Position numbers: made by a program. This document shows, in pieces, positions 18,901 to 24,900 of a stretch of 64,000 nt of DNA. Location: the NCBI GenBank assembly GCA_031431875.1, contig JANPEF010000026.1, positions 23,270-87,269 of the forward strand, written 5' to 3'. Origin of the DNA: Candidatus Eiseniibacteriota bacterium (GTDB taxonomy: Bacteria > Eisenbacteria > RBG-16-71-46 > DASYSL01). How positions within the stretch are numbered: position 1 is the first letter of the stretch; every line of letters begins with the position of its first letter.

Positions 18901-21900
18901 AGAGCGAAAAGGATTCGACGGTCCTCATCGACATGGCGCCGATGTTCGCCAGCGACTGCCTCGACCTGACCACGCGGCTCAAGAGCTCGACCAACAAGGG
19001 GTTCCGCTTCGACAAGGAGCGCTCGGCGGTCACCTCGCACAAGGCGTTCCCCAGGAACATGGAAGTCGAGGCGCTGCTCACGTTCTCGCCGAACGACCGC
19101 GAGAACCTCGACGTCGGCCCGCTGGCGGACAGTCGCTACGTGCCGATCACGGTCCACTACAGCTTCCTCGAGCTGCCCGAGTCGCCGATGGCCCCGCGGC
19201 TCGCCGACGATCGCGCGGGATACTTCACCAACGCGTACAAGGACATGAGCCGCGACGGCAAGACCGATTACTGGCTGCGCTACATCAACCGCTGGCGCCT
19301 GGAGAAGAAGGACCCGACGGCCGCGGTGTCCGAACCGAAGCAGCCGATCGTGTTCTACCTCGACAAGACCATCCCGGCCGAGTGGAAGCCGTACGTGAAG
19401 GCGGGAATCGAGGAGTGGCAGAAGGCGTTCGAGCAGGCAGGCTTCAAGAACGCGATCATCGCCAAGGATGCGCCGATGGACGATCCCGACTGGGATGCCG
19501 AGGACGCGCGCTACTCGACGATCCGCTGGATCGTGTCGCACGAGCCGAGCTTCGGCGCGATCGGACCCAGCCAGACCGACCCGCGCACCGGCGAGATCCT
19601 GAACGCTGACATCCTGATGGAAGGCAGCATGATCGTCGGTTACTCGAACAACTGGCGGCGCTGGGCCGCCCCCGACGTGGTCGATCAGGCGATGAACCTG
19701 CCGACGCAGGAGTGGCTGAAGAACGTCACCGATCCGTCGCACCTGTGCATGGCCGGAATCGGCCACGCCAGCGAGGCCGAGTTCCTGTCCACCGCGCTCG
19801 CCCTGACCGGTGTGACGCCCCCGGGCGAGCCGGCGCCGAAGGAGTTCGTCGGTGCGGGCCTCAAGGCGGTGACGATGCACGAGGTCGGGCACACACTCGG
19901 GCTGCGTCACAACTTCAAGTCCTCGACCGACGTCCCGCGCGAGATGCTGCAGGACAAGGCGTGGGTCGCCCAGAACGGCCTGGTCGGCTCGATCATGGAC
20001 TACGACACGCCGAACGTCTCGTCCGACCCGGCACGCCAGGGCTACTACTGGTCGCCGACCGTCGGCACCTACGACAACTGGGTGATCCGCTACGGCTACA
20101 CGCCGACCTCGGCCACGACGGCGGAGGACGACTACAAGCTCGTCACGCCGATCGCGCGCGAGGCGACCGCCGACGGTCACCTCTATGGCACCGACGAGGA
20201 CACCTACCCGGCCGACGCGCTCGACCCGCGCTGCAACATCTACGACCTGGGTGCGAGCCCGCTCGCGTTCTCCAAGGACCGCGTCGCCTACGTCCAGAAC
20301 CTGTGGAACACGCCGGGCCTCGAGAGCAAGTTGATGAAGGAGGGCGATTCGTACGTCGCCCTGCGCCGCGCGATGGACTCGATGCTGCTGCAGTATGCGC
20401 GCGGGCTGTCGCACGCCCGCAAGTACGTCGGCGGCCAGTACGCGCACAAGGTGATGAAGGGTGATCCGGGCGAGAGCGGGCCGTTCACGCACGTGCCGCC
20501 GGCCGAGCAGAAGGAGGCGATGGACTTCCTCGCCCAACGCGCCTTCTCCGCCGAGGCGATGAACGTGCCGCCGGCACTGCTCGACAAGATCGGCAAGGAC
20601 CAGCAGTGGGACTGGGGCAACAACCTGTTCGCCTATGGGCGGCAGGACTATCCCTTCCTGTCGCGTGTCCTCGCCATCCAGGTGGGCGCCATGAACGGCA
20701 TCTCCGAGCCCTCGCTGCTGTCGCGCCTGCGCGAGCAGGAATCGCGCGTCGGCGCCGGTGCGTTCCGCGTGCAGGACGTGTTCTCGCGGCTGACCGGCTC
20801 GATCTGCAGCGAGCTCGGCGTCGCCGGTTCCGTTCCGGCGGCGGGTGCGGCCAAGTACGCCGCGCTCGATCGTCCGAACACGCGCCGCGGCCTGCAGCGC
20901 GCCTACGTCGACCGCCTCTCGGAGATGGTGATCAACCCGTCGCCGGCGGCGCCGGAGGATGCCCCGGCCCTGGCGCGGCTCCACCTGACGCGGATCGCCG
21001 ACGCCTGCCAGCGCGGACTGGGCCCCGCCGGCCCCGGCAGCGACACCGTGCGCGCGCACCTGATGGAGCTGCGGGCCCGGGCCCGCCGCGCCCTCGAGGC
21101 GCAGCGCGAAGTGCCAGGCGTCCCGCGGCCCAACCCCATCGCGGGCGGGACCGCCGCCACGGCAAGATAACGGCTCCCCATGTTGGCTCCCCGAAGGGGG
21201 AGCCAGGGTTTCGGCGAACGGCCCCGGTGCAGCCCAGCCGGGGCCTTTCGCTTGCCCGGCATCGCGCCCCTCCGCGCCCGGCCAGGCTCCAAACCAGCCC
21301 CAATAACTTGTCCCTTCGGGACGGAAACTCCCGGTTGATCCCGCCGCCGCGGGTGGCGTACACTCTGCCTGTGCGATCGCCGTTCGATCGCACGGCTCGC
21401 GCGGTCGAAACGACGCGCGCGGACGGTGCACCTGCCCGTCCCGATCCCGGCGGCACCCCGCCGCTCACCGGTGTTCCGGTGACGGCCCCGGCCCGCCCGG
21501 CCGCAGCTCCAGCGGCCACACGCATTTCGTGCCACCGAACCAGAAAACGCGAGTGTTCCCATAGTGAAACGCACCACCTCCGGCTCCTTCGGCCGTCGTC
21601 CCGCACGCAAGACCACCGGACCCTCGCCCGCTTCGTCGAGCGCATCCCCCATGCGTCCGGCCGGCCCGGCCCCGTCCGCCCCTCCGCCGTCCTATGCCCC
21701 CGCGCCTCCGCGCGAGCGCAACGATGAGCCTCGTCCGCCGCGGGAAGCCCGGCCGCCGCGCGAACAGCGCGATGCCCGCCCGGCCCGCGATGGCCGTCCT
21801 CCCCGCGAGGGGCGCGAAGTCCGCGAGCCTCGCCCGCAGCCCGGGTACGGCACGCGTGCACCGCGTCCCCAGCCGGGCCCCGGCGCCGATCCCGGTGCCC

Positions 21901-24900
21901 GCAGCGAAACCGGTGCCCGTGGCCCGGCCGAGGGCCCGCGCGGCGAACGCCGCCGAGGTCGCGGCGGCCGCCGCGCCGGGGGCCGCCCCGAGGGCGTTCG
22001 TCCCGACGGCACGCGCGACTCGCGCGACGTCCCGCGTGGGGATCGCCCGCCCGAGCGGCAGCCCAGCAGCAACGGGTACGGAGCGCAGCGCGGACCGCGC
22101 CCGGCGCCTTCGTCCCAGCCACGTACCAACGGCTTCCGGCGGGCCGATGGCGGCCCGACCGATCGCGCGGGCGAACGCCAGCGCTACGGCGGCGGCGGCT
22201 ACGGTGGCGCGCCTTCGCGCGGGGGCGGCTTCGCCGGTGGTCGCGGTCGCGGCGGCCGGGACCGCCGCGAGGCGCCGTTCACCGACGTGCTCAAGGAACT
22301 TCAGCAGCAGGTCTCGATCGATCCGAACGAGCGCCTCAAGCTCGAGCTGACGTCCGACGGCCTGTCCATGCGCGCGCTCGACATCATCTCGCCCATCGGC
22401 AAGGGTCAGCGCTGCCTCATCACCGCGCCGCCCAAGGCCGGCAAGACGACGCTCCTGCAGGAGGTCGCCGTCTCGCTGGCGAAGAATCATCCCGAGATCG
22501 AAGTCGTCGTGCTGCTGGTCGACGAACGGCCCGAGGAGGTCACACACTTCCGGCGCTCCGTCCCGTGCGAGGTGCTGGCCGCCTCCAGCGACCAGACGTC
22601 GGCCGAGCACGTCGAGATCGCCGAGAAGGCGCTCACCCGCGTGCTCGTGCCGGTGCTCGACGGCAAGGACGTGGTCGTCCTGCTCGACTCGATCACGCGC
22701 CTCGCGCGCGCCTACAACACGACGTTCCAGGGCATCGGCCGCACGCTTTCGGGCGGTCTCGACGCAGCCACCATGCAGGTGCCGCGGCAGATCTTCGGTG
22801 CCGCGCGCAACATCGAGGGTGGCGGCAGCCTCACCATCCTCGGCACGGCGCTGATCGAGACCGGTTCGCGCATGGACGAGGTGATCTTCCAGGAGTTCAA
22901 GGGCACCGGAAACATGGAGCTCGTGCTGTCGCGCCAGCTGTTCGAGCGCCGCGTGTTCCCATGCATCGACATCAAGGCCAGCGGCACCCGCAAGGAAGAG
23001 AAGCTCTACGGCCCCGACGAGATGCGCGCGATCAACAACCTGCGCCGCCGGCTGTCCGAGCGCGACTCCGAGAGCGCGATGAACGAGTTGCTCGAACTGT
23101 TGCGCATGTATCCCACGAACGAGCAGCTTCTCGCCAAGCTCATGTAGCGAAGCTGGTTTCAAGACCGCGGCGCACGGAGGCCCCATGATCCGAATCCGTT
23201 CCAATCCACTCCGGGCCGCGGCCACCGCCGCGGCCTTCGCCGTTTCCCTCGCCACCTCGATCGCACCTGCGCTCGCCGCCGACCCCCCCGTGCCGCGCTG
23301 GCTCCTGCTCACGGGCGCGACGCTGATCGACGGCAGGGGCGGCGCGCCGCAGCGCGGCGTCGAGGTGCTGGTGAAGAACGATCGCATCGAGTCGATCGGC
23401 GCGAACCTGGCGGCCCCCGCCGGGGCGACGACGCTCGACCTGGCCGGCCAGACGCTCTTGCCCGGGCTCATCGACTGCCACACCCACCTGACGTTCGAGG
23501 TCTCCGCCGGCACGCTCCTGCGCGGCGTGACCGAGACGCCCGCCGACCAGGCGATCGGCGCGACGCTCTTCGCGCGGCGCACGCTCGAGGCCGGCTTCAC
23601 CACCGTGCGCAACCTCGGCGCGAGCGAGTTCGTCGACGTGGCACTCAAGAAGGCGATCGACCGCGGCCTGGTCCCGGGACCGCGCATGATCGTCTCCACC
23701 AATTCGTTCTCGACCATCGGCGGCCACGGCGACGCCAATGGCTACCGCCCCGGCATCCTCGAGGACCACCTCGACTACACGCAGGGTCTGCCCACCGGCG
23801 CCGACGAGTGCCGAAAGGCGGTGCGCTACGCGCACAAGCATGGCGCGGGCGTGATCAAGATCATGACCACCGGCGGCGTCCTGTCGGCCAACGACGCGCT
23901 CGACGCACGTGCGTTCTCGGATGCCGAAATCGAGGCGATCGTCGACGAGGCGCACCTGCTGGGGCTGAGAGTCTGCGCGCATGCCCACGGCGCTGAAGGA
24001 CTCAAGGCGGCGGTGCGCGGCGGCGTGAACTCGATCGAGCACGGCACCTACCTCGACGACGAGGGCGTGAACCTGATGAAGCAGAAGGGCTGCTGGTTCG
24101 TCCCGACGCGCAGCGCCGGCGAATGGGTGTTCGACCAGGCCGACAAGGGCGGGATCCCGCCGCACGCCGTGGCCAAGGCGAAGCAGGTCGGCCCGATCAT
24201 GCGCGACTCATTCCGCCGCGCGCTGAACGGCGGTGTGAAGATCGCGTTTGGCACCGATGCCGGCGTCTTCCCCCACGGACAGAACGCGCGCGAGTTCAAG
24301 TTCATGACCGACCTGGGCATGAGCCCCATGGCCGCGATCGTCTCGGCCACCTCCGGAGCCGCCGGGCTGCTGGGCTGGAACGAGGTCGGCGTCGTCGAGA
24401 GGGGCCGCTACGCGGACTTCGTGGCGGTGCCGGGCGACCCGCTGGACGACATCACGCTGCTCGAGCGTCCGAGCCTGGTGATCAAGGGTGGCGCTGTCGT
24501 GATCGACCGCCGCTAGCTTGCGCGCGAACTCGTTTGGCGCGCGCTACGGAGGCGCCGCCCTCGTCACGGGCGCCTCGGCGGGGATCGGCGAGGCCTTCGC
24601 CCGCCGGCTCGCGGCCGACGGAACCGACGTCGTGCTCGTCGCCCGGCGCGGCGACCGGCTCGACGCGCTCGCGGCCGAATTGGTCGCTGCGCACGATGTG
24701 CGCGCCGAGGCGATCGCACTCGACCTCGTCGCCGCGGACGCGATCCCCCGCCTGCTCGCCGCAATGGCGGAACGCAACATCGTCGTGGGTCTCGTCGTCC
24801 ACAACGCCGGCATCGCAGTCAATGCGCCGTTCGCGACGGCCGACCCCGCCCGCCTGCTCGCCCAGGTCGATTTGCACTGTCGAGTCCCCGTCGAGCTCAC

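Follow-up and report, generated by a model that had tools for sequence, protein, structure and literature searches.

The window analysed here is a 64,000-nucleotide stretch of DNA from an uncultured sediment bacterium of Candidatus Eiseniibacteriota, whose genome is approximately 70% GC. It carries a second rho gene, encoding a Rho paralogue without the OB-fold RNA-binding domain. The open reading frame on the + strand is real and ends with a TAG codon at 23147. Its start had previously been placed at ATG 21651, giving a protein of 498 amino acids. However, in a same-genus relative that is 99% identical (L114), the supposed methionine is an alanine. The N-terminus encoded from GTG 21564, VKR[TS]SSG..GRRP, is common to the window protein, L114, L113 and L008, and the motif is also found in P0002 and P0012; in L008 an in-frame stop codon lies three codons upstream of it. 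The start was therefore moved to GTG 21564, and the head of the 527-residue protein is consequently 29 amino acids longer than was thought. No Shine-Dalgarno-like sequence was visible before this GTG when the sequence was read by eye. The gene and its 5′ region comprise the following features:

21220..21245, + strand: terminator-like hairpin after the upstream Met-zincin gene (9-pair stem with 8 GC pairs, T-rich tail)
21246..21563, + strand: C-rich, G-poor leader (C 42%, G 29%)
21564..23147, + strand: OB-less Rho paralogue, whole gene (GTG start, TAG stop, 527 amino acids)
21564..21605, + strand: N-terminal motif VKRTTSGSFGRRPA, kept in family-level relatives, which fixes the start codon

Two terminator-like hairpins were found where 0.9 were expected, identified by consensus match only. 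The one that follows the upstream Met-zincin gene suggests that the second rho is its own transcription unit. The C-rich stretch runs on from the leader into the first ~110 codons. GC skew was -0.188 in the leader and -0.258 at 21400-21699, and the absolute skew of the latter segment is reached by just 0.09% of the 300-nt windows of the genome. The leader and first ~110 codons resemble a rut site, and in the family of the window protein this C-rich 5′ region may place the paralogue under the control of canonical Rho. No Rfam family reached its gathering score in the leader. In three RNA libraries, contigs span 21391-21613, though this is weak evidence.

The motor domain and the canonical Rho of the genome

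The folded part of the protein begins at residue 239 and contains the following elements:

22278..22307, + strand: connector helix FTDVLKELQQ, residues 239-248, the first folded element (AlphaFold2)
22308..23144, + strand: Rho RecA-type motor (Pfam, Rho models, alignment to E. coli Rho 1pv4 residues 139-412)
22425-22448, + strand: Walker A APPKAGKT, aligning to E. coli K181/K184/T185
22524-22529, + strand: catalytic Glu and Arg valve, E321/R322 (E. coli E211/R212)
22674-22691, + strand: Walker B VVLLDS, with D375 equivalent to E. coli D265
22725-22763, + strand: Q loop
22857-22871, + strand: R loop
22989-22991, + strand: Arg finger R476 (E. coli R366)

The only Pfam family above its cut-off was PF00006, at residues 269-473 of the 527-residue form (240-444 of the 498-residue form). 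The NCBIfam Rho model NF006886 scored 387.3 bits against a cut-off of 315 on the motor alone, matching model positions 134-412 of 413 (0.68 of the model), and TIGR00767 gave 376.8 bits, below its cut-off of 509.45. The Pfam and NF006886 matches are those of the preliminary description, whose statement that the Walker A, Walker B, Q-loop and R-loop regions are kept was borne out by alignment to E. coli Rho. The E. coli residues K181, K184, T185, L208, E211, R212, D265, S266, R269, R347, R353 and R366 are all retained, and the Q and R loops show only the conservative changes K283R, T286S and K326R. Of these, S286 and R326 also occur in the canonical Rho of the same genome, but R283 does not, the canonical protein keeping lysine. 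The retained catalytic and channel positions were invariant in 74 homologues, in which 86 positions were invariant altogether, all catalytic residues included. AlphaFold2 gave pLDDT >90 over most of the motor, and the connector region has the pattern L..L..LQ..SIDP.ER throughout the clade described below. Mismatches between the motor and that of L114 were distributed 4/1/14 by codon position.

The second motor lies beside a housekeeping Rho, as had been reported. The genome contains two Rho-type motors, which are unlinked (contigs C26 and C28), and exactly one match to PF07497, on contig C28 (125.7 bits). This match lies in the canonical rho, and there is no separate OB-only gene in the genome. 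The two motors are 50% identical (137/273), rather than 56% as given earlier. Fifteen positions are fixed differently between the OB-less clade and the canonical Rho of the phylum, six of them at E. coli positions 283-298 near the Q loop, and the two lineages are separated by long branches (0.40 and 0.66 changes per column).

The disordered head

The region upstream of the connector helix was annotated as follows:

21564..22277, + strand: disordered basic head, residues 1-238 (composition, no secondary structure, no Pfam domain)
22128..22187, + strand: short head motifs NGFRR (22128-22142) and GERQRY (22170-22187), kept at family level
22215..22271, + strand: RG-rich basic run SRGGGFAGGRGRGGRDRRE, directly 5′ of the connector helix

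Residues 1-238 include 51 R, 2 K, 11 D and 14 E (net charge +28), 44 G and 44 P, and just 5 of the 238 are I, L, V, M or C. Neither Rho_N (PF07498) nor Rho_RNA_bind (PF07497) was among the 11 Pfam families listed at E<=1. In the AlphaFold2 model, computed from a 74-row alignment, residues 1-238 had no helices or strands, with pLDDT block means of 35-62; as no helix precedes residue 239, an N-terminal helix bundle is not predicted. The architecture is thus a disordered head with no OB fold, followed by a motor in which every catalytic and channel motif is kept.

Six head columns were invariant in 11 close homologues (G190, G203, E204, R205, R207 and Y208), and NGFRR and GERQRY were confined to the closest family and not conserved across the wider clade. 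What the clade heads keep is composition, strongly basic and about 4% hydrophobic, and not sequence. The 100 residues before the connector were net positive in all 30 clade heads examined (+6 to +23). The composition of the head is under selection.

It had been cautioned that the start was uncertain and that the head might be partly untranslated; the start did move, but codon-position and frame tests indicate that the head is translated. Mismatches between the head and that of L114 were distributed 6/8/25 by codon position, so that 25 of 39 fall at third positions, and the single gap is of 3 nt and in frame. The frame of the motor was stop-free and, in 27 of 30 clade loci, less hydrophobic than any of the other five (4.6% versus 11-24%). 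It is very improbable that the head is wholly or partly untranslated, a chance reading of a GC-rich leader with a motor-only product made from an internal codon. Long open frames rich in R, G and P do arise by chance in DNA of 77-83% GC, the heads annotated in homologues by gene callers range from 0 to 235 amino acids, the GTG lacks a visible Shine-Dalgarno-like sequence, and GC3 is lower in the head (0.63-0.87) than in the motor (0.87-1.00). Against this stand the third-position excess, the in-frame gap, the stop-free frame, and the N-terminal peptide kept in four loci with the L008 stop just upstream. Moreover, no ATG, GTG or TTG just before the connector helix was conserved across the clade in the alignment, which was read by eye. 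An RNA-library contig of a close relative also runs from the head into the motor and has a 6-nt deletion that preserves the frame, a weak point on the same side.

Distribution and phylogeny

When the homologue search was repeated, the best 120 of 7994 relatives again all contained PF00006 and lacked the Rho N-terminal domains, with lengths of 275-518 amino acids. An earlier survey of 41 genomes had found second copies to be common. This remains so, and its counts are replaced here by those of 121 genomes of the phylum, including the unpublished genome G015: 96 had at least two Rho-type motor matches, 23 had one and 2 had none. A copy at least 59% identical to the window protein was present in 65 of the 121 (64 of 120 without G015). 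All 65 also had canonical rho, either complete or truncated at contig ends, and it likewise accompanied the OB-less copy in 5 of 5 genomes checked outside the phylum sample. In the genomes examined the OB-less paralogue was never the sole Rho, a pattern that dependence on canonical Rho explains no less well than autonomy does.

The OB-less paralogues form a conserved head-plus-motor clade of single origin in Eisenbacteria-type MAGs. Trees of 60 and 121 rows supported the clade at 100/98 and 99, respectively. The 32 rows of the clade, none with a stop inside the match, come from at least five families of the phylum and from MAGs named Krumholzibacteriota and Gemmatimonadota. Second copies in other families of the phylum have an OB fold and motor (f7 and f13) or a disordered region, OB fold and motor (f12, f15 and f16), and relatives that keep PF07497 score 20-70 bits for it. 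The f7 and f13 copies adjoin the OB-less clade in the unrooted tree (split support 85/83), and the lineage markers that they share with it lie at E. coli positions 219 and 370 and within the Q loop. Gene neighbourhoods contained no conserved neighbour pointing to a pathway and gave no sign of a connection with degradosome or RNA-decay genes.

Comparison with known Rho proteins

Canonical Rho of the E. coli type ('Type 1' of Moreira et al. 2024; TIGR00767/NF006886; PDB 1PV4, 3ICE) resembles the window protein in its motor, with all motifs and loops. The window protein differs in lacking both the helix bundle and the OB-fold primary (YC-dinucleotide) RNA site, and in falling below the TIGR00767 cut-off. 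Deletion of N-terminal residues of E. coli Rho abolishes RNA binding (PMC11347177). Primary-site function can be largely compromised in E. coli Rho given help from NusG (PMC4150792), and the NusG KOW domain binds Rho's C-terminal translocase domain and promotes closure of the ring (PMC7819879).

Type 2 Rho (M. tuberculosis, M. luteus, Bacteroides) likewise has an Arg/Gly-rich disordered region on a Rho motor in a GC-rich organism, but there the region is inserted in the N-terminal domain and the OB fold is kept, whereas the window protein has the disordered region alone. Such regions on Rho have been linked to RNA affinity and phase separation (PMC11347177, PMC12360218): in M. tuberculosis, whose genome is GC-rich, Rho depends critically on its insertion to recruit structured substrates (PMC13650167), and the disordered region of B. 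thetaiotaomicron Rho drives phase separation (PMC11347177, PMC12360218). The M. tuberculosis insertion has no sequence similarity to the window protein (phmmer domain score -8.9). Group B/Type 4 and Type 2d copies (D'Heygere 2013; Moreira 2024) and NF041509 ('paralog_Rho2, short form') also represent a second, shorter Rho beside a full one; they lose only the helix bundle and keep the OB fold, whereas the window protein has no PF07497. NF041509 gave the window protein 353-354 bits (cut-off 628), at model positions 79-360 of 360 only, and fitted the canonical Rho of the genome better (457.6 bits, model positions 12-359).

The closest description in print is found in the supplement of Moreira et al. 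(2024, NAR, PMC11347177), where 28 'Rho-like ATPase domain' sequences are listed from Pseudomonadota (including Myxococcales), the PVC group and Chloroflexi. In these only the Rho ATPase/BCM-binding domain is detectable and essential residues are kept, and the Myxococcales members have a D/G/R-rich initial region. Compared by description only, the present clade differs in being large, monophyletic, of Eisenbacteria type and under purifying selection. In that source the class receives only a passing mention, as a 'Rho-like ATPase domain', and is dismissed as 'not functional Rho factors'. The preliminary reading of a conserved OB-less second motor with a disordered Arg/Gly-rich head, beside Rho, can be kept, but its claim to a new functional class was overstated, as ATPase-only forms are already in that supplement.

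Proposed function and alternative explanations

We put at about an even chance that the paralogue is a functional second Rho-type RNA translocase which uses its basic disordered head to capture RNA. The protein would probably form a Rho-like ring with ATP-driven 5′ to 3′ movement on RNA, the intact secondary (central-channel) RNA site serving as the translocation path. The pyrimidine-specific OB-fold site would be replaced by the ~240-residue basic Arg/Gly/Pro-rich head. Judging from its composition and from the precedents among OB-fold Rho proteins, the head would hold the ring on RNA by electrostatic attraction, with low sequence selectivity. The substrate range would then be unlike that of housekeeping Rho and might include structured or G-rich RNA in a genome of ~70% GC. 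Ring closure may receive help from NusG, and candidate outcomes are transcription termination, R-loop removal or RNP remodelling. Counted against this explanation are a head conserved in composition only, its lower GC3, the lack of a conserved gene neighbour, the constant presence of canonical Rho, the loss of RNA binding when N-terminal residues of E. coli Rho are deleted, and the dismissal of ATPase-only forms in print (PMC11347177). A bolder form is possible but doubtful: that these proteins are an autonomous class of ring translocases that load through the basic head, possibly with condensates or NusG, and provide GC-rich bacteria with a second, sequence-blind termination or RNA-clearing system.

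An unlikely alternative is that the paralogue joins canonical Rho in mixed rings, giving hexamers with fewer pyrimidine sites and with basic heads in trans, and so tunes housekeeping termination and possibly condensate partitioning. The constant coexistence of the two genes (65/65 and 5/5) and the sharing of all ATP-pocket and Arg-finger residues by motors that are 50% identical would be expected of such rings, and heterohexamers have been proposed for two-copy species (PMC11347177, supplement). The 15 positions fixed differently between the two clades, the long separate branches and the unlinked genes (C26, C28) argue against mixed rings. A role away from the transcription complex is quite unlikely; the protein would then serve as an RNA helicase or RNP remodeller, for example in RNA decay, in unwinding of R-loops or structured RNA, or in condensates, and not as a terminator. 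The missing domain is that of canonical rut recognition, the retained canonical Rho can cover termination, and the ties of Arg/Gly-rich regions to RNA affinity and phase separation (PMC11347177, PMC12360218) agree with such a role. However, the motor, channel loops included, is as conserved as that of termination-competent Rho, the neighbourhood has no linked degradosome or RNA-decay genes, and this role differs in target alone from the translocase that we favour. Finally, loss of the domain held essential for RNA loading, and the denial of Rho function to ATPase-only sequences in the supplement of PMC11347177, might suggest that the gene is a rho duplicate in decay that no longer functions. 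A stop-free clade that extends over at least five families and MAGs of two further names, 86 invariant positions including every catalytic residue, and the third-position bias of the motor mismatches make this extremely improbable.

Significance

By textbook accounts, the primary RNA-binding site of Rho is essential for finding rut sites. In dozens of genomes, always beside a normal Rho, the motor has been kept under selection after this site was lost, and such sequences were put down as non-functional in the one paper that mentions them (PMC11347177). If the paralogue acts only in mixed rings, it would represent a new way of tuning a global terminator. If it is itself active, it would provide a natural experiment on what the primary site of Rho is needed for, on the way in which a ring helicase can be brought to RNA by a disordered basic region, and on how GC-rich bacteria handle structured, C-poor transcripts.

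Gene, start codon and leader

The gene g00594, which encodes a second Rho paralogue without the OB fold (OB-less Rho), is read from a GTG codon to a TAG stop. It lies among the following features of the window.

17434-18312, minus strand: divergent upstream gene
18126-21170, plus strand: Met-zincin gene, longest ORF
21220-21245: terminator-like hairpin after the upstream gene
21246-21900, plus strand: C-rich, G-poor stretch covering the leader and about the first 110 codons
21564-23147, plus strand: OB-less rho, 527 aa
22725-22793: Q loop and following residues (E. coli positions 278-300)
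25390-25905 and 25993-26574, plus strand: two adjacent DUF6982 genes (82.9 and 81.6 bits)

The preliminary description had placed the start at ATG 21651, giving a protein of 498 aa. We replace this start by GTG 21564, as the Met codon is an Ala codon in L114, a 99% identical copy from a genome of the same genus. The peptide VKR[TS]SSG..GRRP at the GTG is common to the window, L114, the relative L113 and L008, a locus of a named Eiseniibacteriota MAG, and in L008 an in-frame stop is found three codons upstream of it. The database homologues P0002 and P0012 are likewise called from the equivalent point. Taken together, these comparisons indicate that the 527-aa form is the real product.

The neighbouring genes (a DsbD-like gene, a Met-zincin of the DUF4953/DUF5117 type, an amidohydrolase, a short-chain dehydrogenase and the two DUF6982 genes) are unrelated to RNA metabolism. 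Only L008, the closest named relative, shares the DsbD-like gene, the 17434-18312 ORF, the Met-zincin and the amidohydrolase, and no conserved partner gene was found in the other 118 loci searched. The longest Met-zincin ORF overlaps the divergent upstream gene by about 190 nt; its true start is probably further downstream, because what looks like a signal peptide starts only about 87 codons into the ORF. No known Rfam element was found in 20900-23400, where nhaA-I (18.9 bits, threshold 37) and IRES_Bip (18.4 bits, threshold 40) were the only matches, both sub-threshold, and a sigma-70 promoter scan gave 0 sites.

The C-rich stretch is among the most C>G-skewed of the genome. GC skew is -0.258 at 21400-21699, an absolute value reached by 0.09% of the genome's 300-nt windows. 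The four closest loci have the same skew (-0.245 to -0.277), which is weaker elsewhere in the clade, and leaders of canonical rho genes in the phylum are comparably skewed (-0.19 to -0.31 in 10 of 18). Canonical Rho binds C>G-rich RNA, and rho genes are autoregulated by attenuation. Together with the skewed leader, these properties raise the possibility that OB-less rho is cross-regulated, by attenuation, by canonical Rho.

Domain organisation

In a Pfam scan of OB-less Rho, PF00006 (residues 269-473) was the only family above cut-off, and neither Rho_N nor Rho_RNA_bind was among the 11 families listed at E<=1. The head thus lacks both domains, as first described. NCBIfam Rho models align to the protein solely from model position 134 on; NF006886 passes with 387.3 bits, and TIGR00767 fails (376.8 bits, cut-off 509.45). 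The model NF041509, named 'Rho2 short form', was rejected as the family of OB-less Rho, since the match is partial (353 bits, positions 79-360 only) and below the cut-off of 628; it fits the genome's canonical Rho (g00680) better (457.6 bits, positions 12-359). OB-less Rho is therefore a Rho variant in which the N-terminal features that define the family are missing.

The motor was aligned to E. coli Rho (1pv4, residues 139-412). Residues K181, K184, T185, L208, E211, R212, D265, S266, R269, R347, R353 and R366 (E. coli positions) are kept, and the sole changes in the Q and R loops are K283R, T286S and K326R. All that the motor requires to hydrolyse ATP and to hold RNA within its central channel is intact and under selection.

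AlphaFold2, run with a 74-row alignment (pTM 0.62), predicted no secondary structure in residues 1-238, where pLDDT block means are 35-62. The first helix spans residues 239-248, and in most of the motor pLDDT exceeds 90, falling at the Q loop. The head contains 51 R and 2 K against 11 D and 14 E (net +28), with 44 G and 44 P, and only five residues are I, L, V, M or C. From the structure model and the composition it is clear that this protein has no OB fold. We hold the division into a head and a motor with high confidence. The initial observation of a second Rho made of a motor and an R/G-rich head is real and solid, with the start codon amended.

Translation of the head

GC-rich DNA yields R/G/P-rich open frames by chance, so that composition alone is little proof of translation. 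The start had initially been considered uncertain and the head perhaps partly untranslated; the start has been reset to the GTG, and four tests (the N-terminal peptide, codon positions against L114, frame hydrophobicity and net charge) speak for translation of the head. Head DNA is 95.2% identical to that of L114, with 39 mismatches falling 6/8/25 by codon position and one 3-nt gap, and mismatches in the motor fall 4/1/14. The codon test is limited to L114, because low-complexity DNA misaligns at the divergence of L113 and L008 (75% and 74% identity; gaps that are multiples of 3, 13 of 56 and 11 of 46 respectively).

Heads were surveyed in 30 clade loci, two rows identical to others having been dropped from 32. 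The motor's frame was stop-free and the least hydrophobic of the six in 27 of the 30 (mean 4.6% versus 11-24%), and in every head the 100 residues immediately preceding the connector helix were net positive (+6 to +23, mean +15.8). On the other side, GC3 is 0.63-0.87 in the head and thus below the 0.87-1.00 of the motor. A tandem-repeat scan of the head detected short arrays only, of 2-2.6 copies, and no sign that the head is built of repeats.

A 919-nt RNA-library contig from a close relative, with 33 differences and a single 6-nt deletion, covers 21804-22707, and contigs of three RNA libraries cover 21391-21613. These contigs lend weak support to translation; DNA carry-over into such libraries is possible. 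Depth over 22340-22940 comes mostly from rho genes of other organisms, and uncovered parts are uninformative. RNA-library contigs of two studies start at 21391 and 21395, roughly 170 nt before the GTG, and hint weakly at a transcript 5′ end.

Coexistence with canonical Rho

In total the assembly (3.75 Mb, 166 contigs, 98% complete) encodes two Rho-type motors, which share 50% identity over 273 aa. Its one match to PF07497, the Rho_RNA_bind OB fold, lies on contig C28 within the 427-aa canonical Rho. This search found no separate OB-only gene in the assembly and thereby rules out a split Rho in it.

We then consider 121 genomes of the phylum, including the unpublished G015, from which alone nothing is concluded. 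At least two Rho-type motor matches were present in 96, one in 23 and none in two. In 65 genomes, all in families f1, f2, f4, f8 and f10 of the phylum, a copy reaches 59% identity or more to the window motor; 63 of these genomes carry, at another place, a strong PF07497 match (119-126 bits). In the remaining two (G005 and G113), and also in G039, canonical rho is present and truncated at contig ends. Five genomes beyond this sample, reached through loci L009, L010, L012, L013 and L052, each had one strong canonical OB match (117-122 bits). The proposed coexistence with canonical Rho therefore holds in 65/65 phylum genomes and 5/5 outside ones, and in none of them is the OB-less copy the sole Rho.

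Second copies in other families are built differently. Those of f7 and f13 consist of OB fold and motor; the copies at L087, L089, L091 and L093 are short, with weak OB matches (23.6-52.6 bits). In f12, f15 and f16 a long RG-rich disordered region precedes OB fold and motor, and is 300 aa long at L095, L097 and L099. Together with the OB-less copies, all three second-copy architectures thus occur in one phylum. In seven families, every sampled genome has just one Rho-type motor match.

Relatives and phylogeny

A word-based search gave 7994 matches, of which the best 120 carry PF00006 only (275-518 aa). Called heads among the matches listed are 0-235 aa long and R/G/P-rich. Among representatives of 50%-identity clusters, P0122 (560 aa, 61% identity, 388 bits) alone rises above a continuum that starts at 345 bits, which indicates that the OB-less family is a tight clade.

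Whole open frames of 79 named genome loci, from MAGs labelled Eiseniibacteriota, Krumholzibacteriota, Gemmatimonadota, Acidobacteriota, Elusimicrobia and Gemmatales, were scanned against Pfam. At E<=0.001, PF07497 was absent from 39, including all of L008-L020, and present in 40, mostly Acidobacteriota, as weak matches of 20-70 bits, 21 of them below the 27-bit cut-off. Where the match is missing in Acidobacteriota forms, the OB fold may merely be very divergent. Loci L021-L086 (Acidobacteriota/Thermoanaerobaculia) form a large Rho group without Rho_N, 55-64% identical to the window motor, in whose N-terminal regions PF07497 reaches only 20-57 bits or is undetected. The OB fold appears to be eroding gradually in these lineages.

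Motor trees, which are unrooted, separate the two Rho types. In a quick tree of 121 rows the OB-less forms are one clade (32 rows, SH-aLRT 99) and the phylum's canonical Rho another (18 rows, support 100); in a careful tree of 60 rows support is 100/98 for the OB-less clade (21 rows) and 100/100 for the canonical clade. A split with support 85/83 in the latter tree sets the OB-less clade apart from all other rows, together with the OB-bearing second copies of f7/f13 and an Elusimicrobia form that has almost no head; this grouping is moderately supported and not decisive.

At fifteen positions the OB-less clade and the phylum's canonical Rho are each fixed for a different residue. Six lie within E. 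coli 283-298, and the segment 22725-22793 of the window holds them. Markers common to non-canonical lineages versus canonical Rho are the Q loop GR..SGG..A..M..PR, F219 and K370 (E. coli positions). Because the 283-298 signature is partly common to OB-bearing non-canonical lineages, it marks lineage and not loss of the OB fold. On the simplest reading, an old second-copy lineage would have lost the OB fold once, on the branch to the OB-less clade.

Relation to described Rho proteins and possible function

OB-less Rho is already mentioned in print and is uncharacterised there. Moreira et al. 2024 define 'Rho-like' sequences and list 28 'Rho-like ATPase domain' proteins, which keep the essential residues and are yet termed non-functional; Myxococcales members have a D/G/R-rich initial domain (PMC11347177). 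In Group B Rho (D'Heygere 2013, as cited in PMC11347177) only the helix bundle is missing. Our literature search for a described OB-less or second Rho, including primary-site redundancy, found nothing beyond Moreira et al. and no functional study of OB-less Rho; the accessible text of a 2025 review does not mention it.

Precedents for RNA capture by disordered regions come from OB-bearing proteins. In M. tuberculosis Rho a disordered insertion is critical for recruiting structured substrates, and selection with the wild-type protein gave 1759 putative Rut sites, against 47 for a deletion variant (PMC13650167). Arg-rich insertions raise the RNA affinity of M. luteus and M. tuberculosis Rho, and an insertion in B. 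thetaiotaomicron Rho drives phase separation (PMC11347177, PMC12360218). The M. tuberculosis protein keeps its OB fold, whereas in OB-less Rho the head is disordered and the part that recognises YC dinucleotides is missing. Primary-site function of E. coli Rho can be largely compromised when NusG assists (PMC4150792), and the NusG KOW domain acts on the Rho C-terminal domain to favour ring closure (PMC7819879). A complex prediction for the motor (residues 232-527, alignment A2) with the genome's NusG KOW scored 0.00 against a mark of 0.32 and speaks neither for nor against binding. The best named ESM Atlas clusters for head residues 1-240 carry Rho_RNA_bind at 0.75-0.76, below the level of shuffled proteins, and have no evidence value.

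The property common to the heads is a basic, glycine-rich, hydrophobic-poor stretch adjoining the short connector helix, kept in composition and not in sequence. Conservation of this kind is what an electrostatic nucleic-acid tether would be expected to show. The main rival is that OB-less and canonical Rho form mixed rings. Their constant coexistence fits mixed rings as well as it fits a separate translocase, and we consider mixed rings unlikely. Because of the intact motor, the tether-like heads and the precedents, we favour a ring translocase with RNA capture by a disordered region, a mechanism whose chances we put at about even. The head would serve as an electrostatic RNA tether, so that the ring would capture RNA through the disordered region and not through a YC-dinucleotide site. 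A function of OB-less Rho as a ring translocase loaded by its head is thus a plausible reading of the sequences.
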